A stretch of 64,000 nt of DNA from Candidatus Bipolaricaulota bacterium (GTDB lineage Bacteria; Bipolaricaulota; Bipolaricaulia; UBA7950; UBA9294): contig JBFMGK010000011.1 in assembly GCA_040752575.1 (NCBI GenBank), positions 2,580 through 66,579 on the forward strand, written 5' to 3'. Shown here one piece after another: positions 15,031-64,000 of the stretch. The notes below the pieces were generated by a model. The model saw only the letters and a list, made by a program, of their open reading frames with translations. It was not told the origin of the DNA and ran no database searches. Position numbers and translations under genes: made by a program. Numbering within the stretch: position 1 is the stretch's first letter; each line of letters starts with the position of its first letter.

Positions 15031-15133
15031 CATTGTGTACGTGCGAAGTCAAGAGCGCCGCGGCTGCGTAACCCACACCTCTACTGAGCTTGGCGCATCT
15101 TGCGCAGAGTTTCGAAGCGGGCGACGGGGTCTG

Positions 15134-15542
15134 GGAGTCAGAGTCGTTTCTTGCCCCTAGACGGCAGTGGGTCAAAACGAAGCTGGCGTTGACACCAGTG
15201 AGGTCGCGTGGTCAGATCTCAACTCTTTGCATCGCGCGGCACCTCGACAGGACGTCAAAGTGGCCGCGGGGTCAGATCTTCATTCTTGGTGTCTCTGCGG
15301 CTCCGTGATGAGTCTCAGGTGCCTCGGGCTCGGTCCTGCGTCACGACGGTGGGCGCGCGGCAAACCTTCCTCTTGGGCCACGGGGTCAGATCTTCATTCT
15401 TGGTGTTCCTGCGGCTCCGTGATGAGTCTCAGGTGCCTCGGGCTCGGTCCTGCGTCACGACGGTGGGCGCGCGGCAAACCTTCCTCTTGGGCGAAGTCGC
15501 ACTGCTGTCGGGTGGCGGGTTCGCGTCTTGCCTCTTGACGTT
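15134..15542 (+). repeat. Array of GGGGTCA-family motifs (about 15134, 15208, 15268, 15382, 15517) including repeat copies 2 (15268-15378) and 3 (15382-15533)
   Basis: Direct alignment; 114-bp tandem duplication; variable spacing 74/60/114/135 bp. Confidence 0.85.
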
Positions 15543-24334: not shown

Positions 24335-26074
24335 ATGCAGTTGACCTTACGGCAGGCTCTGGAGCTGGCGGAGCCTCTGCGCAACGCGCGAGTCGTCGCC
24401 GGCGCGGCGGGACTGGACAACGTGGTCGCCTCGGTCAATGTGATGGAAGTGCCCGACATCGTAGACTGGGTGCATCCTGGTGAGCTCCTGGTCTCGACTC
24501 TCTATCCCCTGCGGGACGACAAAGCCGCTGTCTCGAGGCTGATCCCAGAGCTGGCCAAGAAGAAGCTCGCCGGCTTGGCCGTGACACCGGAGACCTACAT
24601 AGAGGAACTGCCGCAGTCTATGGTAAGGGATGCGGATCGGCTGGGCTTCCCATTGATTGAGCTACCACCACGCGTCTCGTTCGTCGACATTATCCAGCCG
24701 CTGACCTCTCGAATCCTCGATCTTCAGGCTGCGGAGTTGCGCCAGTCTGATGCCATTCTCAAGCGGTTTCTGGACCTGGTTCTGGTCGGTGGACACTACT
24801 CGGATATCGCCCAGGTCATCAGCGAAGTCTGTCATCGCCCTGTCTCAATTGTCGACCGCTTTCGAAGAGTCCTGGGGCATGGTGGGAAGGTTGGCGACTC
24901 CGTCGCCAGCCGCCTCATCGAAGAAGACCGTGCCGGGGAGAGCTATGTCAGTCCTGCAGTTGATCTGATGGGGGGGGCGGCTGGAAGGGGCGACCGAGCG
25001 GGGTGGCACGTCGTCACGGAGCAAGATGGGATGGAGATCTCGAGCCTGATCTCGCCCGTGGAAGTTAGTGGGACATCGCTGGGGAGCATCATTGTCTGGG
25101 AGCCACTCGCCATCGAAGCACAGGGCAGAAGTCTGATGGCGATACAGCATGGTGCAACGGTTGTGGCCCTGAAGATGATGGAGACGCGCTCCATAGGGCA
25201 GATTGAGCAGCAGTTTCACAACGAGATTCTGGAAGGCTTACTCTCTGATCAAGCTGCCACTCGGTCCAGCGCGCTTCAACTGGCGGAGAGTCTGGGCAGA
25301 GCGCTCTCGCCTCCGTTCGCGATTCTGCTTGTGGGCTCCGACTTGCCATCTCATCGGCTACTCGCTGCCAGGGAGCGCCGTGAGCAGAGCAACGTCGATG
25401 CGAGCCTACACCTGGCGCAACGGTACATTCGGAGCTATCGAGACGGCGTCTCCTTCTGGAGACGCGGCCCCCATCTGATTGTCTGTTACCCCGTGCACGC
25501 TCAGGACAGGCCGCACGGTTGCGGCATCGTCGCGGAGATGCTACGGGAGGTTTGCGATCGGATCGAAAAAGAGAACGCACCCTACACCGTGTCCGCTGGA
25601 ATCAGCCGGAGGGTGGAGAGTCTTGATCGGTTCCCTCACGGCTACGAAGAAGCGAAGCAGAGCTTCGAGATCGGGCGGGCCCTCGCCGGTGAGAAGGCGA
25701 GCACTGTGACCCTCTTCGATGAGCTTGGACTGCTTCGGTTCGCCAAAGTGTCGGAGACCACGATCGGGATACGCAACTACTGCATGGACATGCTGGGGCC
25801 GCTTCTGGAGCATGACGCACGCAGTCCGGCGAGCCTTGTTCGAACGCTCAGGGTATTCCTTGACGCCAATCAGAGCCATGTGGAAGCAGCACGCATGCTG
25901 GGGATTCACTACAACACATTGCGCTACCGTCTGAGGGGAATCCGCGCCCTGGTTGGCGACATCTTTGCAGAGCCGCAGAGGCGACTCGCTGTCGAAGTTG
26001 CTCTTCATCTTTATCCCCTGTTGGAGAGCGCTGTTCGGGACGCGACAGGGCCGAAGGCGAAGGGGCGACGGTAG
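24335..26074 (+). CDS. PucR family transcriptional regulator
   Basis: N-terminal VVAGAAGLDNVVASVNVMEVPDIVDWVHPGELLVST; C-terminal HTH AARMLGIHYNTLRYRL. Confidence 0.93.
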   Translation: MQLTLRQALELAEPLRNARVVAGAAGLDNVVASVNVMEVPDIVDWVHPGELLVSTLYPLRDDKAAVSRLIPELAKKKLAGLAVTPETYIEELPQSMVRDADRLGFPLIELPPRVSFVDIIQPLTSRILDLQAAELRQSDAILKRFLDLVLVGGHYSDIAQVISEVCHRPVSIVDRFRRVLGHGGKVGDSVASRLIEEDRAGESYVSPAVDLMGGAAGRGDRAGWHVVTEQDGMEISSLISPVEVSGTSLGSIIVWEPLAIEAQGRSLMAIQHGATVVALKMMETRSIGQIEQQFHNEILEGLLSDQAATRSSALQLAESLGRALSPPFAILLVGSDLPSHRLLAARERREQSNVDASLHLAQRYIRSYRDGVSFWRRGPHLIVCYPVHAQDRPHGCGIVAEMLREVCDRIEKENAPYTVSAGISRRVESLDRFPHGYEEAKQSFEIGRALAGEKASTVTLFDELGLLRFAKVSETTIGIRNYCMDMLGPLLEHDARSPASLVRTLRVFLDANQSHVEAARMLGIHYNTLRYRLRGIRALVGDIFAEPQRRLAVEVALHLYPLLESAVRDATGPKAKGRR

Positions 26075-26092
26075 ACGGACTGGCACGCGGTA

Positions 26093-26169
26093 TTGTGCAG
26101 AAGTGACAAACGCCCGACGCTTGGTTGTGCCAGTTCGACATTCACAACGAACCCGGGTCCTCCCACAAT
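26093..26169 (+). promoter_or_regulatory. PucR-type operator sites (26093-26109, 26125-26141) and weak promoter TTCACA-N17-CACAAT
   Basis: Repeated TTGTG..ACA motif upstream of the ABC operon. Confidence 0.55.
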
Positions 26170-26272
26170 GGCACAGAGTGAAGTGCCCGATTCAGTATTG
26201 GGCACGAGAGGCCGAGTGGTCGTCCCGTCAGCGGCTGAGTCACGCGGTGCGTTGGCGCAATCCGGGGAGAAT

Positions 26273-27847
26273 ATGTGCAGTAGGGGAAGGGTCACAGCAG
26301 GTGTCGATCGCGTCAGTGCACGCGCGGGCCATCCCATTGCCCAACTCAGGGGAGTCACTAAGCGGTTCCCAGGCGTCGTAGCGAATGATGCCGTCGACCT
26401 CGACCTGTATCCGGGTGAGGTCCACGCTCTCCTTGGGGAGAACGGCGCGGGGAAGAGCACGCTGATGAAGATTCTCTACGGGTTCTACAGCTACGATGCC
26501 GGGTCAATCCATATTGACGGTCGCGAGGCTCATGTGTCTTCGCCGCTCGATGCCCGCAAACTGGGGATCGGGATGGTGTTCCAGGTCTTCACGCTCATCC
26601 CCGCGATGACAGTCGCAGAAAACGTTGCGCTGTATGTACCCGGGTTGCCCCTGATGCTCGATGCCCGCTCTCTCGGGAAGAGCCTCCGTGCTCTCGGCAA
26701 CCGCTGTGGGCTTCGAGTAGATCCGAGTGCCAACGTGCGCAGTTTGCCGATCGGAGATCAACAGAAGGTCGAGGTCTTGAAGTTGTTGGTTGCAGAGGCG
26801 CGCATTCTGATTTTCGACGAGGCCACCCGCGTGCTTGCCCCCCATGAGATTGAGGGTCTCTTCGAGATCTTCGAAATGCTCAAGAAGGATGGATACGCCA
26901 TCGTCTTCATCACGCACAAAATGCGCGAGGTCCTTGCCTGTGCGGATCGAATCACCGTGATGAGACGCGGGAAAGTCTCCGGAACCGTTCGAGGCTCGGA
27001 GGCGACGGAGAAAGCACTGATCGAGCTGATGTTCGGTGGATCCGTACCCGATCAGGCGCCCCGCGGCGTGAGGGATGCAGCGGCGGGCGACTGCATCCTA
27101 GAGCTTCGCGGCGTCAGTACTAGGGCTCATGGAGTGGGTATTGGACTTCGCGATGTGGATCTCGCGGTTCGCTCTGGCGAGATTGTGGGCGTTGCCGGAG
27201 TGTCGGGCAACGGGCAGCGCGAGCTGACCGATCTAGCTCTCGGGTTGGCTGCGTGTACCCGCGGGGAGAGACTGATCCTCGGTTCGAACGCCACAGCTTG
27301 GGGCGCTCGCAGGGTAAGGGCGATGGGAGTCGGGTTCATTCCGGAGGATCCGCTAGGTATGGGTGTGGTCCCATGGATGACGCTTGCACAAAACGCTGCG
27401 CTCGGTGATGTCGAGACGTACTCCCGCTACGGTGGACTATCGATCGATTGGCAGCACGTTCGCCGAGATGTCGCAGCTGCCTTCGCTGAACTCGATTTCG
27501 AGCCGCTGGAGACATGGGTTCCCGTCAGAACCTTCTCGGGGGGGCAGCTTCAGCGAGCCGTGCTGGCGCGAGAACTTGGCAGACACCCGCGCATATTCGT
27601 TGCCTCGTATCCGACACGTGGATTGGACGTACGCAGTGCGACGGCGACACGGCGGGTTCTGGCCGGACTGCGAAGCCGGGGCGGCGGGGTTCTTCTGATC
27701 TCCGAGGATCTGGACGAGCTCTTCCAGCTGAGCGATCGGCTCGTCGTCCTCCGCGAGGGCAGAATCGTCGGGCAATTCCTGCCCCAGGAGTTGGATCGCC
27801 ACACGATCGGTCACCTGATGACGACTTCCGGAGATGGCCATGAGTAG
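26273..27847 (+). CDS. CUT2-family (nucleoside/sugar) ABC ATP-binding protein, two NBDs
   Basis: GENGAGKSTLMK, ILIFDEAT, GVSGNGQREL, FSGGQLQR, SEDLDEL; start could be upstream. Confidence 0.92.
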   Translation: MCSRGRVTAGVDRVSARAGHPIAQLRGVTKRFPGVVANDAVDLDLYPGEVHALLGENGAGKSTLMKILYGFYSYDAGSIHIDGREAHVSSPLDARKLGIGMVFQVFTLIPAMTVAENVALYVPGLPLMLDARSLGKSLRALGNRCGLRVDPSANVRSLPIGDQQKVEVLKLLVAEARILIFDEATRVLAPHEIEGLFEIFEMLKKDGYAIVFITHKMREVLACADRITVMRRGKVSGTVRGSEATEKALIELMFGGSVPDQAPRGVRDAAAGDCILELRGVSTRAHGVGIGLRDVDLAVRSGEIVGVAGVSGNGQRELTDLALGLAACTRGERLILGSNATAWGARRVRAMGVGFIPEDPLGMGVVPWMTLAQNAALGDVETYSRYGGLSIDWQHVRRDVAAAFAELDFEPLETWVPVRTFSGGQLQRAVLARELGRHPRIFVASYPTRGLDVRSATATRRVLAGLRSRGGGVLLISEDLDELFQLSDRLVVLREGRIVGQFLPQELDRHTIGHLMTTSGDGHE

Positions 27848-35190: not shown

Positions 35191-35789
35191 TCGCCACGCA
35201 ACCGAGCTGCGCCAGGTGGCGGGGCCGCATCGACACTCTGCTTGCACGGCGCGCTTTCCAGTCTGGGGGGGAGAGCGCGTAGCTGTGGGATCCGCAGCAT
35301 CGTACAGCCCCGGGGACATCCGCGGGCGGCACGATGAAGTTCTCCCCGTAGCGCGGCAGATCTCGGGGACACCGTCAGCGTGCGTGCGGCACAAGCCCGA
35401 GACGCTGCGGCCGCCGCCCGAGGGCATTGGATGGCCACGAGGAGTACGCCGCGAGAGAACAGAGTGTGTCTCGGCGGCTGGCCGCAAAGTGCGGCACAAG
35501 TCATGGGCAGTCGCCTTCCGTAGCGTGGGCAAGCCGGGCCATCGGCCCCCAACGGAGTCAGGAGCGACTGAGTCCATCACTCGCGCGCTACCGTTTCGCG
35601 TCGGCCGCCGTCCCGTTGCACGGCAGGGTCACCAGGGAATGCTCATGGCTTGGCCCGTGCCGCTCTCGATGAGGACATCAAGCCCTCCCGCACCCGCCGG
35701 GCTTCCCGCTATACTCGCGCCGGGTTCGGTGTCTGCATCCCGAACGGGGAGCCTGGGGACGCAAGCGCGTGGAGGGAGCGGATGGGCGC

Positions 35790-57295: not shown

Positions 57296-58402
57296 ATGGT
57301 GTCAAAGGCTAGACTGCTCGCTCCCGGTGTTGTTCTGCTGGTGATCCTCGTTGTCTCCTCGAGCAGCGTCAGGTGCGAAACAGGTTCAGCCTCTGCCAAC
57401 CCATCTGACTGCCCGTTCCAAGAGCTCTACGATCAAGGGGTGGATCGCTATCTTGGTGTATTCGTGCCAACAGCCACGGAACTCCTCATGGGAAACGTTG
57501 TCAAGCACGAATTCGTCGGCGGTGACGGGCCCCTTTGCTTCACTGGCAACGAGTTCTCGATGTACACGAGAGATGGTGAGAGCGAGGAACTCATGATCTT
57601 CCTGCAGGGTGGCGGTGCCTGCGGACCGACATCTTGCGAAGCTGTCGATTTCCCCTTGCCGATTGTCAGCCTGGGCATTCTCGATCCCAGAAACGCGGCA
57701 AACCCTGCGGCGAACTTCGACCTGGGCTACACACCCTATTGCGACGGAACGCTGTTCAGTGGCGACAAGGAAGTCGATAGCAATGGAGACGGAAACATCG
57801 ATCGATTCTTCCGCGGAATTCAGAACCTCTCGGCCGCACTAGACGTTATCGCCAGCACCTATCCCGCCCCAAGCAGAATCCTCCTAGTCGGCAATAGCGC
57901 AGGCGGGTTCGGCGTCCATTACGCCTTGCCGCTTGTTCGGAAGCTGTACCCGGAGGTGCCGATCGACCTTGTCAATGACTCCGGAGTCGGCATCCAACAA
58001 CCTGGTGTGCAGGAGAGCCTGATTGACTATTGGAACTCCGGTGGCTTCTTCCCGGCAAGCTGCAGTCGTTGCATCGGCGACGATGGCAATCTCACCGACT
58101 ACTACAAGTACCAACTCGCCGAAGACGAGAACGTCCGAATGGGCTTCATCAGCTCCACGCGTGACGAAGTGGTGACTGGACGAACGATGATCGACGGTGC
58201 CGAGTTTGAAGCGCAGCTTATCGCGGCAATGGCCGAGCTCGAACAGGCATACCCCGACCGCTTCCGCAGCCTGATTTCCGACACGGCGGAGCATACCTTC
58301 GTCATCAAGCAGTTTGGGTTCGCTGTCGCCGACACCACCGTCCTGCAGTGGATCACGGATATGCTAAGTCAAAGCGGTGATTGGGTGTCCGCCAGCGACT
58401 GA
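57296..58402 (+). CDS. Secreted pectinacetylesterase-family hydrolase
   Basis: IFLQGGGAC, PYCDGTLFSGD, GNSAGG nucleophile elbow, NDSG; GAGGAGG RBS. Confidence 0.85.
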   Translation: MVSKARLLAPGVVLLVILVVSSSSVRCETGSASANPSDCPFQELYDQGVDRYLGVFVPTATELLMGNVVKHEFVGGDGPLCFTGNEFSMYTRDGESEELMIFLQGGGACGPTSCEAVDFPLPIVSLGILDPRNAANPAANFDLGYTPYCDGTLFSGDKEVDSNGDGNIDRFFRGIQNLSAALDVIASTYPAPSRILLVGNSAGGFGVHYALPLVRKLYPEVPIDLVNDSGVGIQQPGVQESLIDYWNSGGFFPASCSRCIGDDGNLTDYYKYQLAEDENVRMGFISSTRDEVVTGRTMIDGAEFEAQLIAAMAELEQAYPDRFRSLISDTAEHTFVIKQFGFAVADTTVLQWITDMLSQSGDWVSASD

Positions 58403-58564
58403 TCCACCATTCGGCATGAAGAGCCTGCACGCTTGCCTGGCCACAGCATCCAGTCACGATTCACCGGGAGCCGACTCATCTGCGTTTAGAGCCTAGGAGA
58501 CCCGAGCGAAGGCTCCCGCCTTCATAGGTCCTAGAGAGCGTTAGGGAATCGCGCACCAGAAAGA

Positions 58565-59518
58565 AGGGTCAGGTCTTCCTATCACGCATTCCTTCTTCTC
58601 CGTATCACACCTTCCTGTGCGCGCACGCGGCGGCTGATGGTCGAGTAGTGAATGCGAAGATGCGCGGCGATCTCCTGCTGGGTGTAGCGGTGTTCGAGGT
58701 ACGCGCGGGCAATCCCGGCAGCGTCATCGGGGTTGGAGACGATGGCGATGAGTGCAGGCCGCCCGGCGACAAGCTGATCCCGGGGGATCTCTGAGAAGGC
58801 CGTTCGCGGGGGCGTGTGCTCCTCGATGAACGCGTCGCTCCCCAGATAGACTTGCCCGCGCAGGTTCTCCCACACCGTGACCCCGCGGCCTTGTGATACG
58901 AACTTCCGGTACGCCTTCTGCGCTCTGGCCCTCGATGCGCCGAACTGGTCAAGGATCCAGTCGGTCGTTAGGAACTCGGGTGTGGCCTCGAAACCGGCCG
59001 TGGCGCGATAGCTTGACCATGGCCAGTCCCGCGCGGAGCGGACCATCCGAGCTCGAACCGGATTCAGGACCACGTAGCGGGCGAGCTCAAGGAGGTACGG
59101 ATCCCGCTCCACGAGGACTCCCTTGAAGCGCCCCTGGAAGACGTGGCCCGTTCTTCGGTGCCTGCGGTTGAACTCCTGGGTGTACACGCCATTCAGCTGT
59201 CGCATCCCGAGAGACAGGGTGGGCTCAAGCGTCTCGATCAGGAGGTGATATGTGGTTGGCGACGCTGCGCGTCGCTAGGGGCGAACTGCGTTCGCCTTGA
59301 CGTTCTGGCAATACGCATGGCACTGCCAAGTGAACCGTTCGACGACCTCCGTGAGCAGCTCGAGGAACATCTCTCGGTCGGGGTCGGTGAAGAAGATCTT
59401 CTCGCGCGCATTGCCGCGACAAGTCACATGGTAGACAGCTCCGGGGTACTCAATTCTCAGAGGACGAGCCATATGCCCAGCATAGCCCTTTCGGTGCTTG
59501 ATAGGAAGACCTGACCCT
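58565..59518 (-). mobile_element. RAYT (TnpA-REP, Y1 HUH) element bounded by perfect 20-bp inverted repeats
   Basis: AGGGTCAGGTCTTCCTATCA at 58565-58584 and its reverse complement at 59499-59518. Confidence 0.85.
58582..59472 (-). pseudogene. RAYT transposase with C-terminal HTH, interrupted at the HUH motif
   Basis: MARPLRIEYPGAVYHVTCRGN...CHAYC, in-frame TAG 59277-59275, YHLLIET..GMRQLNGVYTQEFNRRH.R.GHVFQGRFK...NPVRA...WPWSSY. Confidence 0.92.
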
Positions 59519-59549
59519 ACGCCCTGACCCTACGCCCTGACCCTACGCC
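59511..59549. repeat. Tandem repeat (CTGACCCTACGCC)x3
   Basis: Three exact 13-bp units overlapping the RAYT upstream inverted repeat. Confidence 0.95.
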
Positions 59550-59752
59550 CCGGGTCCCACTCAAGTCGGACAGTGAGGTCCTCGTCTCCGGCCGTGATCG
59601 GCACGAGTCGCATGGGGCACCTCCACTCCCTGGACGCGTTCGGACAGCCGGGTAGCACATCGACGGCACGGGCTGCTCGGCTGTTGCCAGGAGCATGACC
59701 CGCCGCCGCTGTGCGTCGAGCGTCGCGGGAGTCCGTGTACGAAGGCGCAACG

Positions 59753-60703
59753 CTATGGTCGTGGCGGGCCGATGTGCCATTCGCTCATTCGGGCGTACTC
59801 GACGCAGCCCTGTCTGGCGAAGAGGCGCATCATCGCCCCATTCGTCTCGCTCGTTCCGTCATGATAGGTCGTACCTCCGAGCGCGCGCAGCGTTGCAATC
59901 CCATGTCGGTGCACCGGAAGGCCGAGGCCACGCCCGCGATGCGTGGGAACGATGCCGATGAACGCAATCGTCGACCAGCCGTCCTCGGGCGTCGCCAGGC
60001 AGAAGAGAATCGCCACCGGCTCAGCCCCCAAGTAGCCGATCTGGATCGCACGCGGGTCTAGGTCTTCGTAGCGCGCCCCGAGGGTGTTCTCGATGGCGGA
60101 AGAGCCCACGCTGGTGTCGACGGCGTCCGGAGAGTCGATGCTCGCTACGCGAAGGAGATGGAGCACGAGGTCCTCGCCTGTCTCAACCATCGTCCTCCAA
60201 ACGAGATCCGAGGTGTCCTCCAGGGCCATCTGATCGAGCGGCGTCTTGTACTCGACTCTGCGAGTGACCCGCCCGAACCCCGCATCGAGTAGGGCGGCTT
60301 CGTAGTCAGGCGTCATCTGATCATCGTGCACGCGCGTGCCAAGGTCGCGAATGCCCATCTCCCCCGCTCGTCGGCGTGCCTGCATCAGGAGCCGCGTGAT
60401 ACTCCCCCGCGTGCCGTACCCGTCGCGGCCTCGCCACGGCATGAGCACGGCCTCGTCGGGTCCGCGGCGAAACAGACGAAGGCTGCCCGTCACGTGGAGT
60501 CCGTCAGGGCCGATCTCGACGAAGACATCGGCGAGATCGAGGTCGCCGGTCTCGACTCGGCGAGTCATCCGCTCCAGGACGGCGGAAGGCTCGTCGCCCT
60601 GGAGCGAGGCGAGTAGCTCGGCGTATGCCTCAAGATGTGAAGGGTCAAGACGCATGGCCCGGGCTGTGCATGAGCCGGGCTGCGGTCTGTCGGCTTGTGT
60701 CAT
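59753..60703 (-). CDS. GNAT family N-acetyltransferase (tandem GNAT)
   Basis: IAFIGIVPTHRGRGLG, TSETNGAMMRLFARQG; GAGGAG RBS. Confidence 0.85.
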   Translation of the reverse strand: MTQADRPQPGSCTARAMRLDPSHLEAYAELLASLQGDEPSAVLERMTRRVETGDLDLADVFVEIGPDGLHVTGSLRLFRRGPDEAVLMPWRGRDGYGTRGSITRLLMQARRRAGEMGIRDLGTRVHDDQMTPDYEAALLDAGFGRVTRRVEYKTPLDQMALEDTSDLVWRTMVETGEDLVLHLLRVASIDSPDAVDTSVGSSAIENTLGARYEDLDPRAIQIGYLGAEPVAILFCLATPEDGWSTIAFIGIVPTHRGRGLGLPVHRHGIATLRALGGTTYHDGTSETNGAMMRLFARQGCVEYARMSEWHIGPPRP

Positions 60704-61126
60704 GAAGTCTCCTCTTCTGCGTGCGGTGTGATTCGCGCGCGACAGACGTGCCCCGAATGGGGCAGGATTGGGATGCCGCGCACCGGTCTTGCGGGAGGAG
60801 CGACCCAGGCAACGGAGAAATCCGTGGCGCTCTAGAAGAGGCTCGATGCTCGCGTGGCGAGGGTAGCTTCCGGCTCTGGAATGGGTTTTCTGGCTGTTAA
60901 CATCGCTACCCTCCTTTCTCTCTCAGGCTCCGTACAACGATGGCAGCCGTTGGAGAACGCATCGGATGGGGCCAGTATAGAGACGTGCCGATGCCGGCGC
61001 AAGGGGCGTCCACAAAGTAGGCCGAGCTGGCGGGGACTGGATCCGACCGGCGCGGAGGGCCATGATGGGCCTCGTGGGTTTCCATCGAGCGGCAAGGGCT
61101 GGGAGGCAACTCGTGAGGTGCGAAGA

Positions 61127-62107
61127 ATGAGGAAGGACAGGACGCCGGCGGCAGCGGCGATGAATGCGGTTGTCTGCCGCAGGTATGGACCGCCCGAAGT
61201 CTTGCAGCTCGCGAAGGTCGCGAAGCCGTTTCCTAGACCTGACGAAGTGCGCGTACGCATCCATGCAAGCGCCGTCACAGCAAGCGACATCTTCATCCGA
61301 TCGGCGCGCGTGACGCCCGCGTTCCAGATTCCATTCCGCCTGATGATGGGGATCACCAAACCACGGCATCCTGTTGTCGGGTTTGTCTTCTCTGGCGTTG
61401 TGGATGAAGTGGGCGCGAGGATTGAGCGGTTCAAGCCGGGGGATGAGGTGTATGGAACGACAGGATTTCGCCTCGGCGCCTACGCGGAGTACCGATGCAT
61501 GAGAGAAGCGGACTCACGTCAGCACGGTTGCCTGGCGCTCAAGCCCGAGAACGTCACACACGAGGAGGCAACTGCGGCCGCATACGGCGGGTTGCTAGCA
61601 CTTCAGTATGTCGAGAAGGGGAACATCCAGGCCGGCGACAAGGTCCTCATCTACGGAGCGTCGGGGACGTCCGGCACGATCGCTGTGCAATACGCAAAAC
61701 ACCTCGGCGCGATCGTAACGGGCGTGTGCAGCACGACGAACATCGACTTCGTGAAGTCGCTTGGCGCAGATCAGGTGATCGACTACACACGGACGGATGC
61801 GCCGCCGGAGGGTGCCCGTTACGACTTCGTGCTCGATTCCGTCGGTGGCATCAAGACGTCGAGGCTGAAGAAGGCGTGCAAGGAAGCGGTTGCGCCAGGA
61901 GGGAAGTACGTCTCGATTGACGACGGCGATCTAGAGCTGAGCTCCAAACGGATGGCGCGACTCAAGGAACTTGTCGAAGCTGGGACGATCACGCCGGTTC
62001 TTGGGCGCACGTATTCGCTTAGCGACGTCGTTGAAGCCCATCGCTTCGTCGAAGGCGGGCACAAACGTGGCGGTGTGGCGGTGACAATTCCGCATGCGGA
62101 AGACTGA
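61127..62107 (+). CDS. NAD(P)-dependent MDR-family oxidoreductase (quinone reductase/ADH-like)
   Basis: YGPPEVL, VRIHASAVTASD, GAYAEY, VLIYGASGTSG, VKSLGADQVIDYT, GHKRGGV; start 61127 or 61160. Confidence 0.92.
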   Translation: MRKDRTPAAAAMNAVVCRRYGPPEVLQLAKVAKPFPRPDEVRVRIHASAVTASDIFIRSARVTPAFQIPFRLMMGITKPRHPVVGFVFSGVVDEVGARIERFKPGDEVYGTTGFRLGAYAEYRCMREADSRQHGCLALKPENVTHEEATAAAYGGLLALQYVEKGNIQAGDKVLIYGASGTSGTIAVQYAKHLGAIVTGVCSTTNIDFVKSLGADQVIDYTRTDAPPEGARYDFVLDSVGGIKTSRLKKACKEAVAPGGKYVSIDDGDLELSSKRMARLKELVEAGTITPVLGRTYSLSDVVEAHRFVEGGHKRGGVAVTIPHAED

Positions 62108-62211
62108 CCTGCCCCCGAGGGCGCTGGGGGGATGAAGAGCAGACAGGGACAACGCTGTGGAGTCTGGATGACTGCAGCCAGAACCTTCGTTCTGACTACA
62201 GAGTGGTAGTG

Positions 62212-62284
<73 letters not shown>

Positions 62285-62296
62285 AGAGTCAGCCGC

Positions 62297-62326
62297 ATGA
62301 TACCCGTTGATGGCGGAGGGGCGCAA
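62297..62326 (-). promoter_or_regulatory. tRNA promoter TTGCGC-N18-TATCAT
   Basis: Directly upstream of the tRNA 5' end. Confidence 0.5.
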
Positions 62327-62335
62327 CGGGCGGCT

Positions 62336-62452
62336 GAGTCCGTGGTCCAGAGTCGAGAACCGATTCGTTGGGTTCATTGGGTTGCGAGGAACTGGGTGCG
62401 CGGTGCGCAGCCCCTGGTCCGCAGTGCGCGGTCCGCAGTCCCGGAGGACGGC
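62336..62452. repeat. Mixed 7-mer (GTCCGCR) / 9-mer (GRGTTCRTT) repeat tract, left
   Basis: 23-bp exact match 62364-62386 = 63667-63689. Confidence 0.85.
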
Positions 62453-62537
62453 AGGCCTACGGCCGCGCGCGGTTCGGGATCATGTAGCGTCGGGGCTTGC
62501 CCCGGCGGCATCTGTGGGCGCGGAGCGGAAGATGCCT

Positions 62538-62978
62538 CTACATCAGGTCAGGGTGCTCGGCCTGGAGCCATTCGCGGACGCGCGTGACGACTTGTGTCGC
62601 GAGGGCGATCGCGTCGAGCGCTTCCTGAGCGGACACGCCACCCGCGCGCTCGTAGTCGCTCTTGTCTCTCTTCCTTTTCACGGTCTGAAGCATCAAGAGG
62701 GTTTCGGAATCGAGGCCGACGGTGAAGCGCAGGGACTGGAGCGTGTAGTGGTGGTGGCCCGAGCCTTTCGCGGCACGGTAGCCGGCGGCGGCCAGCGCAG
62801 TCGTGGCTGCCTGGAGGGCGGCGTTGAAGGCGATGGCGAGCTTCCATTCGGGGCAGTGCGTGGCCGACGAGGCCTCCCTGAGATCACGCCGCGTGATGGC
62901 CAGCAGGTCGGCGATCTCCTGTGGGCTCGTCGCATGTGCGGCGAGGAAGCGATGCTGCAGCCACTCAGTCAAGCTCAT
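62538..62978 (-). CDS. HEPN domain protein (SAV_6107-like)
   Basis: All-helical; AFNAALQAATTALAAAGYR..GHH..KRKRDKSDYER; overlaps the MNT stop. Confidence 0.8.
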   Translation of the reverse strand: MSLTEWLQHRFLAAHATSPQEIADLLAITRRDLREASSATHCPEWKLAIAFNAALQAATTALAAAGYRAAKGSGHHHYTLQSLRFTVGLDSETLLMLQTVKRKRDKSDYERAGGVSAQEALDAIALATQVVTRVREWLQAEHPDLM

Positions 62979-63567
62979 CGAGATCCCCGATCAGTTGCAG
63001 CTTCGGACTTCTAAGAACCGAGGCTACGAAGTGCTCCCCTGTCCTTCGTCTCTCTCGGAACTCGTTCGTGGCGAACACGGTGGGATTGAGCTCACGGCCG
63101 AGGGCGTCGCGAACGTGGGCCGTTGCGGAGACGATGTCGAACAGTGAGACGTCCCCGATGACGAGAAGGTCGACGTCGCTCGCGGCGGTCTCGTCGCCGC
63201 GCGCCATCGATCCGTAGACGGCTGCCGCGTCGATCCGGTCCGCCAGAGGTTCGAGGGCGGCGCGAAGCACGTCGACGACTCCCGATGTCTTGCGGATTAG
63301 GCCCCTGAGCTCCTCAAAGGCCGGCGCCATCTCGTTGGCCTGAAAGTAGACCTGCTGTCCGTCCGGGGTTCGCGTCAGGAGACCGGCGTGAGTCAAGCGC
63401 GCGAGTTCGCGCTGCACGGCGCCACGCCCCGCCCCGGTCCGCCGCAGGATCTCGGTCAGGTAGAAGCGGCGCTGCGCATGGCCGTAGAGCAGCGTGAGGA
63501 CGGCGAGACGCGTCTTGCCGAAGAGCGCTGGGCCGACGGACGAAGTCCCCATATTGGGTACGAGCAT
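62965..63567 (-). CDS. wHTH plus minimal nucleotidyltransferase (MNT) protein
   Basis: LFGKTRLAVL..FYLTEILR..GRGAVQRELARL; AVYGSMARGDETAASDVDLLVIG; start 63567 or 63552. Confidence 0.88.
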   Translation of the reverse strand: MLVPNMGTSSVGPALFGKTRLAVLTLLYGHAQRRFYLTEILRRTGAGRGAVQRELARLTHAGLLTRTPDGQQVYFQANEMAPAFEELRGLIRKTSGVVDVLRAALEPLADRIDAAAVYGSMARGDETAASDVDLLVIGDVSLFDIVSATAHVRDALGRELNPTVFATNEFRERRRTGEHFVASVLRSPKLQLIGDLDELD

Positions 63568-63614
63568 ACTCACTATGGGTACGCGAGGCAAGCGCGATCT
63601 CGAGGGCGGGGGGC

Positions 63615-63870
63615 AGTCCGTTGAGTTCGTTGAGATGGAGTCCGGAGTCCGCGGTCAAGAATCGAGTTCGTTGGGTTCATTGGGTTGCGGGCGACGAAGG
63701 CGTCCGCAGTCCGGGGGCCGGAGTCCGCGGCCAAGAACCAAGTTCGTTGGGTTCGCTGAGTTCATTGGGTTCCGACCGGCGAGGGCGTCCGCAGTCCGCG
63801 GTGCGCAGTCCGCAGTGCGTTGAGTTCGTTAGGACGGAGTGCGCAGTGCGCCGTCCGCGGTCCCGGGAAC
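63615..63870. repeat. Mixed 7-mer / 9-mer repeat tract, right
   Basis: Multiple GTCCGCAG/GTCCGCGG and GGGTTCATT/GAGTTCGTT units arranged in roughly 75-bp higher-order repeats. Confidence 0.88.
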
Positions 63871-64000
63871 GGGCAGCCTGCGCAGTGCGCGGTTGGGGAT
63901 CACGTGGCGTGGAGGCTTGCCGCGACGGCTTTGCGCCGGCGGGGCGGCTCAGACGCGCAGCTTGACAAGGATCAGATCTACCGCCGCCGCGAGGTCGGCG

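Follow-up and report, generated by a model that had tools for sequence, protein, structure and literature searches.

An MNT-HEPN gene pair between REP-type mosaic repeats in a Bipolaricaulota genome

The tetranucleotide GTAG is the tag that defines the main superfamily of repetitive extragenic palindromic (REP) sequences, and both GTAG REPs and mosaic clusters have been described (Di Nocera et al. 2013, PMC3733652) in a survey that did not include the Bipolaricaulota. In E. coli, the gap between folA and apaH is occupied either by the toxin-antitoxin (TA) system ccdO157 or by a REP (Mine et al. 2009, reviewed in PMC3184786). In the present work, we analyze a 64,000-nt stretch of DNA (the window) that lies on contig C11 of the metagenome-assembled genome (MAG) of a Candidatus Bipolaricaulota bacterium (G000; 2.16 Mb in 78 contigs). 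Near the end of the window, two genes encoding a minimal nucleotidyltransferase (MNT) protein and a HEPN-domain protein are found between tracts of 7- and 9-nt repeats, next to a tRNA-Ala gene. A previous sequence-only reading had proposed at this place a distinct repeat-bounded mobility or phase-variation mechanism for a TA module. We find that both kinds of tract, of heptamers and of nonamers, belong as modules to a dispersed, selfish-looking mosaic repeat of the REP type, which is non-coding and is present in intergenic gaps of many genera of the Bipolaricaulota. The interpretation that we favor, with a confidence slightly above even for all its parts taken jointly, is that these mosaic repeats provide portable homology for the gain and loss of cassettes, the arrays being fast-changing add-ons, and that the gap already held one unit before the cassette entered, which now lies between two co-oriented units.

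The hairpins of the repeat resemble the GTAG REPs and the bacterial interspersed mosaic elements (BIMEs) described earlier (PMC3733652; Ton-Hoang et al. 2012, PMC3333891), in that they are short GC-rich imperfect palindromes following a GTAG, with tens of extragenic copies located mostly just downstream of genes. RAYT-family genes are likewise present in the genome, and some of the known REP families are regularly joined to other repeats. The difference is that here co-oriented tandem arrays of 7 and 9 nt precede the hairpin, which results in a hierarchical unit of 100-150 bp, and that, unlike in BIMEs, the REPs at the locus are direct repeats and not an inverted pair with a short linker. The folA-apaH gap is a close precedent, with a chromosomal TA pair sitting in a housekeeping gap where other strains have a REP, and the REP is suspected there of driving plasticity (PMC3184786); the present case differs by the REP-type units on both sides, the recurrence of the pattern at several loci, and a cassette common to two genera.

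The cassettes of integrons, among them the sedentary chromosomal integrons that are rich in TA cassettes, are also small, often encode TA systems, carry an imperfect palindrome at one end and show empty and occupied states, and an integrase remnant does exist on another contig of this genome. However, there is no integrase at the locus, and the hairpins are of about 25 bp and begin with GTAG, as opposed to the 57-141 bp of an attC site with its R''/L''/L'/R' boxes, RYYYAAC ... GTTRRRY outer boxes and extrahelical bases. In addition, the cassettes do not lie in one array or one orientation, and the repeats also stand beside housekeeping genes; an integron cassette was rejected for the lack of intI at the locus and of an attC structure. 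The minimal mobile elements of Neisseria are cassettes exchanged between conserved flanking genes through homologous recombination; the homology comes there from the flanking genes, whereas here it would come from dispersed repeats. Intergenic tandem heptanucleotide arrays of unknown function are also found in cyanobacteria, as the short tandemly repeated repetitive sequences (STRRs); we know of no reports in which STRRs are joined to REP hairpins or nonamer arrays.

Repeat tracts on both sides of the gene pair

The gene pair is flanked on both sides by co-oriented arrays of a GTSCGNR heptamer and a GTTCRTTGR nonamer. In the two tracts considered together (62336-62450 and 63610-63870, 376 nt), the heptamer GTCCGCR is found nine times on the + strand and the nonamer GRGTTCRTT six times, while neither occurs on the - strand. 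The remaining 62 kb of the window contain 33 and 4 copies, respectively, with both strands summed. The co-oriented tracts noticed in the sequence-only reading are thus borne out by strand-specific counts. The exact 23-bp direct repeat that it had reported, TTCGTTGGGTTCATTGGGTTGCG, is indeed located at 62364-62386 and 63667-63689 and constitutes the longest exact match between the flanks. The higher-order unit, described as repeated about three times with a length of roughly 75 bp, turns out to measure 76-85 bp. Repeat finding in 63613-63870 gives a 50-nt family with a spacing of 76, a 63-nt pair with a spacing of 85 and a 44-nt pair with a spacing of 199, and arrays of period 9, 7 and 14 are detected in the tracts by TRF.

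In the array part of the left composite repeat (62336..62483, + strand), a heptamer stub (62336-62354) precedes a nonamer array (62364-62383), which is joined through a linker (GTTGCGAGG..) to a heptamer array (62396-62444); a further linker leads to the hairpin. The latter, called REPc (GTAGCGTCGGGGCTTGCCCCGGCGGC, 62484..62509, + strand), is GTAG-tagged and stands just after the HEPN stop codon. The array part of the right composite repeat (63610..63870, + strand) is built of about three higher-order units (63637-63712, 63713-63797 and 63798-63870), with nonamer arrays at 63616-63633, 63666-63686 and 63742-63772 and heptamer arrays at 63637-63658, 63702-63729, 63787-63816 and 63839-63866, all on the + strand. 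Beyond the piece covered by the sequence-only reading follows a second hairpin, REPr (GTGGCGTGGAGGCTTGCCGCGACGGC, 63904..63929, + strand), just after the stop codon of the neighboring gmhB-like gene, which we call degenerate because its tag is GTGG in place of GTAG. Each flank is terminated by a GTAG-type hairpin, which the sequence-only reading had missed; the two are 1.4 kb apart in the same orientation, and a stop codon lies no more than 30 nt from each. The flanks remain homologous through both hairpins, with 81% identity between the region of the 63904 hairpin and that of REPc, and the left and right units are only about 80% identical overall.

The arrays are polymorphic between strains. 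In a 95%-identical strain from metagenome run X3, two units are missing (63633-63786, 154 nt), and the heptamer stretch to the left of the cassette REP is a different one. Coding repeats are ruled out by the period of 7, which breaks all frames, and by this deletion, whose length is not a multiple of three, in agreement with the lack of coding capacity stated in the sequence-only reading. Look-alike 9-bp arrays are seen in Streptomyces, Nonomuraea and Paenibacillus, some of them within open frames. An assembly artefact, which that reading had named as a possible undoing of its proposal, is also ruled out: independent metagenome contigs hold the cassette with the same junctions (exactly in X1, and also in X2 and X3), and the same adjacency of MNT and gmhB is found in G056, a genome of another genus.

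In the single-stranded DNA (ssDNA) fold, REPc forms an 8-bp stem. The fold energies of REPc and the local REPs are not better than those of shuffled sequences (z about 0, in a GC-rich context), no structure is predicted for the nonamer arrays (z +0.5 to +1.2), and the heptamer arrays are weakly structured (z -1.2 to -1.9). A strong ssDNA or RNA structure was rejected on these folds; the sequence-only reading had suggested testing ssDNA structure. A search of Rfam over 58000-64000, with E values up to 1, returns the tRNA and a chance lncRNA match only and no RNA family for the arrays, and neither a promoter or terminator consensus nor an RNA run containing the stretch was found. A type III TA system with a repeat RNA antitoxin was ruled out, as the arrays lie on the strand opposite to the genes, occur also beside unrelated TA families and housekeeping genes, and have no Rfam match. 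Iterons were ruled out on account of the wrong strand and of the same arrays being present beside unrelated genes.

Occupied and empty sites

On the minus strand, the order at the locus is leuS, the gmhB-like gene, the right tract, MNT, HEPN, the left tract and tRNA-Ala(GGC). Empty sites, which the sequence-only reading had suggested looking for, do exist. Five relatives, four of the same genus (G001, G004, G005 and G007) and one of another genus (G009), have the leuS-gmhB-tRNA-Ala order without the cassette, gmhB and tRNA-Ala being about 150-600 bp apart with no MNT-HEPN pair between them. The empty site of G001 contains exactly one nonamer-heptamer-REP unit in the same orientation, and that of G004 a heptamer stub and a REP. 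REPr has the position of the single REP of the empty sites, just 3' of gmhB, an equivalence based on its position; the REPs beside gmhB in G056, G004 and G001 are clearly one sequence (CCGAGACCGCGTAGCGTCGG.GCTTG.C.CCGACGGCG). On the other side of the gap, the spacer that follows the tRNA gene (62285..62335) is common to the congeners (CCGCATGATACCCGTTGATGGCGGAGGG.CGCAA.GGGC), and comparison with G004 and G007 places the start of the divergence from the empty sites at its right end.

The genome G056, of genus g18, has the cassette at the same site, beside gmhB and leuS. The exchanged segment (62484..63604, - strand) comprises REPc, the 3' untranslated stretch, HEPN, MNT and the MNT upstream region, and its left end, at which the blastn alignment starts, is REPc itself. 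Over 1126 nt it is 84.6% identical in nucleotide sequence to contig C67 of G056, compared to 71% for the adjoining gmhB (blastn). The same contrast is seen in the proteins, where the identities between G000 and G056 are 86% for MNT and 84% for HEPN, against 71.5% for GmhB and 69% for LeuRS. With 84.6% identity compared to 71% in the flank, the cassette is younger than its surroundings.

The segment shared with G056 extends from the cassette REP to ..GCAAGCGCGATC. Directly past this point, the resident REP follows in G056 (CCGAGACCGC-GTAGCGTCGG..), the one that G004 and G001 have at their empty sites. Counted from the GTAG of this REP, the junction in G056 lies about 10 nt to the 5' side, and the cassette has a REP on both sides. 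The gmhB side of the cassette in G056 carries the plain REP, without nonamer or heptamer arrays. For this comparison of borders, G000 and G056 are the sole informative junction pair; remoter MNT-HEPN homologues (at most 68% identity) are found in unrelated contexts with no recognizable REP. Judged from these sequence comparisons, the MNT-HEPN pair is a true insertion, that is, a 1.12-kb accessory cassette that appears to have been acquired laterally into the gmhB/tRNA-Ala gap.

A second case of the same kind is found on contig C15, where a pair of the MqsA/SocA type lies between two sets of co-oriented units in a 2853-bp aor-ior gap. In the congener G007 this gap measures 317 bp and contains one REP, and in four other genera it spans 30-613 bp. 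The C15 cassette is rare and patchy in its distribution, with the MqsA-type gene being present in 4 of 78 genomes and 45-54% identical to the copies of three relatives, none of which is close enough for a comparison of junctions. The gene directly upstream of the MqsA/SocA(Panacea)-type antitoxin gene, in the same orientation (C15:79125-79511, + strand), codes for a 128-aa protein that matches nothing in Pfam or NCBIfam, a candidate for a new toxin partner.

The upstream gene of the pair (62965..63552, - strand) encodes a winged-helix plus MNT protein of 195 aa, counted from the ATG at 63552, which is a putative antitoxin and regulator. It matches Pfam Polbeta (29.1 bits) and NTP_transf_2 (28.6 bits), both over the cut-off, contains MarR_2/HTH at its N-terminus, and has the G[GS]x9-13D[x]D motif in the form of YGSMARGDETAASDVDLLV. 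The downstream gene (62538..62978, - strand), which overlaps the MNT gene by 14 nt, encodes a HEPN-domain protein of 146 aa, a putative toxin. Its match to Pfam HEPN has an E value of 0.005 and 17.4 bits, under the cut-off of 22, it contains the R-x6-H string RAAKGSGH, and no match to the HepT-like family PF01934 was found. Homologues of the cassette are present in 44 genomes, and those of the two genes are paired in at least 15 relatives. The pair resembles the type VII MntA-HepT systems in being a two-gene operon with upstream MNT and overlapping downstream HEPN and in the pairing kept in many relatives. It differs from them in the N-terminal winged helix of MNT and in the scores, MNT reaching 26 bits against the NCBIfam MntA equivalog with its cut-off of 60 and HEPN staying under its Pfam cut-off. 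A TA operon is a plausible assignment for this pair.

The MNT upstream region (63553..63604, - strand) is near-identical in G056 and contains TGGGTACG twice, at 63555-63562 and, with a spacing of 21 bp, at 63576-63583; these copies are a candidate operator or promoter, possibly for the winged-helix domain of MNT. A scan of this region for consensus sigma-70 elements found nothing. The tRNA-Ala(GGC) gene (62211..62284, - strand) was identified by ARAGORN and by Rfam (tRNA, 64.5 bits). It adjoins gmhB in G001, G004, G005, G007, G009 and G013, and is a conserved neighbor of the site in all relatives examined, rather than a demonstrated integration target; the adjacency mentioned in the sequence-only reading holds. 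At the other side, the 3' end of the gmhB-like gene for a HAD-IIIA phosphatase (63949..64000, - strand) runs past the window, followed by leuS. Its product scores 161.8 bits against the NCBIfam D,D-heptose 1,7-bisphosphate phosphatase model PRK08942, under the cut-off of 178, and is over the cut-off for HAD-SF-IIIA. The gmhB homologues of G004 (L009/L012/L014) and G001 (L008/L011/L015) match in two pieces, with a frame of 264-278 aa compared to 201 aa for the protein. The frame of G004 apparently continues into the downstream repeat DNA, possibly because of a frameshift or of faulty assembly at the repeats.

The repeat family and its neighbors

Where complete, the composite unit has a uniform order and a single orientation: 2-7 copies of GTTCRTTGR, a short linker (e.g., GTTGCGAGRGGCGT), 3-10 heptamers with an RGTC core, a linker of about 25 nt and the GTAG-tagged REP hairpin. 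In addition to the left flank of the present locus, the succession of nonamers, heptamers and REP is seen at C7, C15 and C44 of G000. Array tracts are found elsewhere in this genome on C7 (two regions), C15, C44, C41, C71 and C27, amounting to about eight loci when C11 is included. Genome-wide, there are 26 runs of at least three heptamers (GTSCRNR) and 14 runs of at least two nonamers, each compared to 1 in the shuffled genome, and the consensus of the hairpin family (TGTAGCGTCGCAGCTTGTCTGCGACGTT / GTAGCGTCGCAGCTTGTCTGCGACG) gives 58 hairpin matches compared to 6. About 45-50 of the REP copies in the incomplete MAG are clear, most of them with the GTAG, and since REP clusters sit at six contig ends of this fragmented MAG, the copy counts are lower bounds. 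The hairpins have what is expected of GTAG-type REPs, namely an imperfect palindrome or stem-loop of 20-40 bp, a 5' GTAG, and many extragenic copies mostly downstream of genes.

Inverted REP pairs also occur in G000, for example, at C7 15320+/15406- and C15 101+/165-. The array on C15, (CGTAGTG)2(CGCGGTC)3(CGGAGTC)2, has identical heptamers in runs of two to three that change stepwise, a pattern that local slippage would give. A long REP variant of 66-70 nt is seen at C7:13160-13227, 15119-15287 and 35329-35394, C33:14768-14833 and 15095-15160, and C20:160-229. In this variant, the loop of the GTAGCGTCGCAG...CTGCGACG hairpin contains a further palindrome (GCGCCAGCCCAAC ... GTTGGGCCAGGC), and GCCCAAC...GTTGGGC forms the inner part of the stem, not the outer part as in attC.

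The family extends well beyond this genome. Of the 41 relatives, 18 contain the 14-mer GAGTTCRTTGGGTT; they belong to different genera and include a second family of the order, and the control with the reversed pattern gave one match. In G015, which has a GC content of 49%, the nonamer arrays are kept and are followed by other 7-nt arrays (GAGTCNR, GTRATGR and AGCTGAW) and by hairpins of the CCGGAAT type (loci L041-L058). The architecture is thus conserved while the GC-rich modules are recoded, because G015 retains the nonamers and the layout with other heptamers and hairpins, and the nonamer sequence itself is conserved between the 65%-GC and the 49%-GC genomes. The nonamer arrays of G015 usually begin 15-60 nt past the stop codon of a co-oriented gene. 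In public genomes, the pattern GTTCRTTGRGTTCRTTGRGTTC is found in at least 120 stretches from many phyla (loci L059-L178), which are raw matches whose excess over chance is unproven. They include Ignavibacteria, Acidobacteriota, Desulfobacterota and other "delta" lineages, and Chloroflexota, several genomes having multiple loci. About 64 of 92 such arrays look non-coding, and some are trailed by an inverted array of similar 9-mers (L059 and L061). The nonamer strings were not found in the literature searched.

The genes beside the arrays were called with a purpose-made caller, some of the neighbors being classified by eye, in MAGs that are fragmented. In G000, the arrays enclose a PIN gene with a ribbon-helix-helix (RHH) gene in one region of C7 (C7a) and VapB with PIN in the other (C7b), with PemK and HEPN alongside. 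The remaining loci have MNT and HEPN (C11), the MqsA-type pair (C15), HicA and HicB (C41), RHH and MNT (C71), HsdR and ORF6N (C44), and an amine oxidase (C27). TA pairs therefore adjoin six of the eight array loci (VapBC twice, MNT-HEPN, MqsA-type, HicAB, and RHH with MNT). Three of the four PIN genes of the genome are at array loci, and there are roughly 15-20 TA loci genome-wide. The probability of six out of eight by chance is below 1e-6 even if 5% of the gaps abut TA genes, with the loci not being fully independent. The orientation of the units relative to the enclosed genes varies, as they are co-oriented at C7b, opposed at C11 and C15, and mixed at C7a.

Among the other genomes, two of the seven loci of G011 are beside TA pairs, MazE-ParE being enclosed by arrays and a PemK pair standing 275 nt away. 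No TA pairs were seen at the array loci of G003, G024, G025, G027 and G010, read by eye. In G015, the 21 array sites on 18 contig pieces have DnaX, Pth, PrfB, MetK, RNase H, PFOR, an Na/Pi transporter and similar genes as neighbors. Because the link to TA genes does not hold generally, we regard the arrays as general intergenic repeats. The cassettes are found preferentially where mosaic repeats are.

Routes of cassette gain and loss

The proposal of a repeat-bounded mobility stands as far as an inserted cassette, direct repeats, empty sites and a second locus are concerned. A distinct device specific for TA genes does not follow from it, as the repeat is a general REP repeat, G056 has no arrays on the gmhB side, and no recombinase is linked to the locus. 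We suggest that the repeats may serve as portable homology because they are common to genomes and genera. A cassette arriving between two repeats, or on a circle with one repeat, would recombine with the resident repeat, leaving a direct repeat on each side. Recombination between these direct repeats would delete the cassette and leave one unit, which corresponds to the state of the empty sites. The short-period arrays would expand and contract quickly by slippage or unequal exchange and would not be required for the occupancy of the site. The acting enzyme would be that of general recombination or a REP-associated HUH transposase, and on this point, as on the function of the arrays, we can only infer.

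Several observations weigh against this interpretation. The flanking units are about 80% identical, and copies from other loci are at least as similar to them as they are to one another, so that no scar of a recent duplication or recombination can be seen. With 23 bp, the longest exact match that they share is marginal for RecA-type exchange. Each genome offers at least 50 REP sites, and finding one and the same site occupied in two genera hints at a stronger site preference than would be expected from plain homology. An excised or circular form was searched for in the metagenome contigs and none was seen. The joints that appeared to skip about 1.3-1.45 kb or to go back were rejected as excision or circle products, because their sides of 20-37 nt lie inside heptamer arrays with extra letters between them; they are read as other repeat copies or variants. 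With respect to the gene classes, the locus counts in G000 are lower bounds and the loci are non-independent, the MAG being fragmented, only one TA toxin (PemK) is present among 20 array neighbors scanned in G015, and 86 public nonamer-array loci have no TA genes within 1 kb in a phmmer search of low sensitivity. The enrichment in TA genes that the sequence-only reading had suggested checking is strong in G000, at six of its eight loci, recurs in part in G011, and does not hold in G015 or the public loci screened.

The candidate enzymes in G000 are few. RAYT-family genes are present on C46 (91 bits, compared to the REP_Tyr_transpos cut-off of 80), C73 and C8, the last being divergent, and a disrupted copy lies in the window (58582-59472, - strand), split into open frames of 65 and 207 aa. 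In the window, a 13-nt unit is repeated 3.2 times at 59510-59550. On C73 (54691-56146), the RAYT-family gene has a damaged N-terminus and is directly beside a HicB-HicA pair. None of the RAYT genes is flanked by GTAG REPs, as the cognate RAYT gene of a REPtron typically would be. Tyrosine recombinases give two matches only, an Xer-like gene on C36 and an integron integrase fragment on C46, both off contig C11, and no recombinase, RAYT gene or integrase is linked to the MNT-HEPN locus. The C46 fragment (25479-25853) is the C-terminal 117 aa of the integrase and matches the 315-position model TIGR02249 from 198 to 314 (E 2e-51). Its missing N-terminal side abuts an intact RAYT-family gene (25923-26786); an integron may have been destroyed here through the insertion of a HUH-transposase element.

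An explanation that we judge unlikely is a dedicated mobilization, in which the composite units would be cis-acting ends and a RAYT/TIRYT HUH or other enzyme would cut ssDNA at the GTAG hairpin and move the unit with its genes, in an integron-like manner without IntI and attC. Direct co-oriented units do bracket the TA pairs at C11, C15 and C7b, one REP is retained at the empty sites, RAYT-family genes are encoded in the genome, and GTAG is contained in some of the heptamers (GTAGTGC). A mechanism of the HUH type is kept alive in particular because the same cassette is at the same REP in two genera, the junction is about 10 nt from the GTAG, and the nonamer has been kept in genomes that differ widely in GC content. 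It is opposed by the absence of these REPs around any RAYT gene, the comparison of junctions in one pair only, the inconstant orientation of the units with respect to the enclosed genes, the 20% divergence of the flanking units, and the lack of a circular or excised junction in the metagenome contigs. We consider distinctly improbable the further-reaching idea that the units would be the working ends of an undescribed system of the Bipolaricaulota for cassette capture and exchange, which would use GTAG hairpins and probably a HUH (RAYT-type) enzyme, carry mainly TA cassettes, transfer them between genera at the same site, and employ the nonamer array as recognition platform. A similarly low probability is assigned to a functional punctuation, where the arrays would be insulators, terminators or platforms for nucleoid- or RNA-binding proteins that shield the neighbors and the cassette from read-through and would be kept around TA genes for this reason. 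The conservation of the nonamer between 65% and 49% GC with recoded heptamers and hairpins, the location of the G015 arrays shortly after co-oriented stop codons, and the predicted unstructured nature of the nonamer arrays, which fits a binding platform, are consistent with it, and in our reading the C-rich, G-poor complement of the nonamer resembles a Rho loading site. However, the orientation relative to transcription is inconstant in G000, there is no Rfam match and no terminator or promoter consensus was found, the number of arrays differs between near-identical strains, and the G056 site has none.

Vertical inheritance with repeated loss would place the cassette in the common ancestor of g1 and g18, with independent losses in G001, G004, G005, G007 and G009. 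The identical site in G000 and G056 would be explained in this way, and direct repeats would favor deletion. We nevertheless find it very improbable, because identity amounts to 84.6% over the cassette with its non-coding parts, in contrast to 71% for gmhB and to 71.5% and 69% for the GmhB and LeuRS proteins, and because at least 3-5 independent losses would be required. Phase variation, in which the number of 7- and 9-nt units would switch the expression of the TA operon, is hardly credible. The arrays do lie directly upstream of the MNT start region and their copy number is strain-dependent, but the change seen involves whole 76-85-bp units and not 7- or 9-nt steps, the conserved upstream region (63553-63604) ends before the arrays start, unrelated genes have the same arrays beside them, also on their 3' sides, and G056 has no arrays at this position. 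What remains of this part of the sequence-only reading is the polymorphism of array copy number between strains.

If the interpretation of the mosaic repeats as portable homology is true, they would act as shared landing pads, by which small cassettes hop between genomes and genera without carrying a transposase or an integrase. This would be a cheap way of spreading TA and defense genes in an uncultured phylum with small genomes. The hierarchical arrangement of a 9-nt array, a 7-nt array and a GTAG hairpin, which was not found in the literature searched, extends the known forms of REPs, and the conservation of the nonamer across a 16-point difference in GC content asks for an explanation in terms of function or mechanism. 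In practice, these repeats are a cause for caution, since they break MAG assemblies and can make housekeeping frames extend into repeat DNA.

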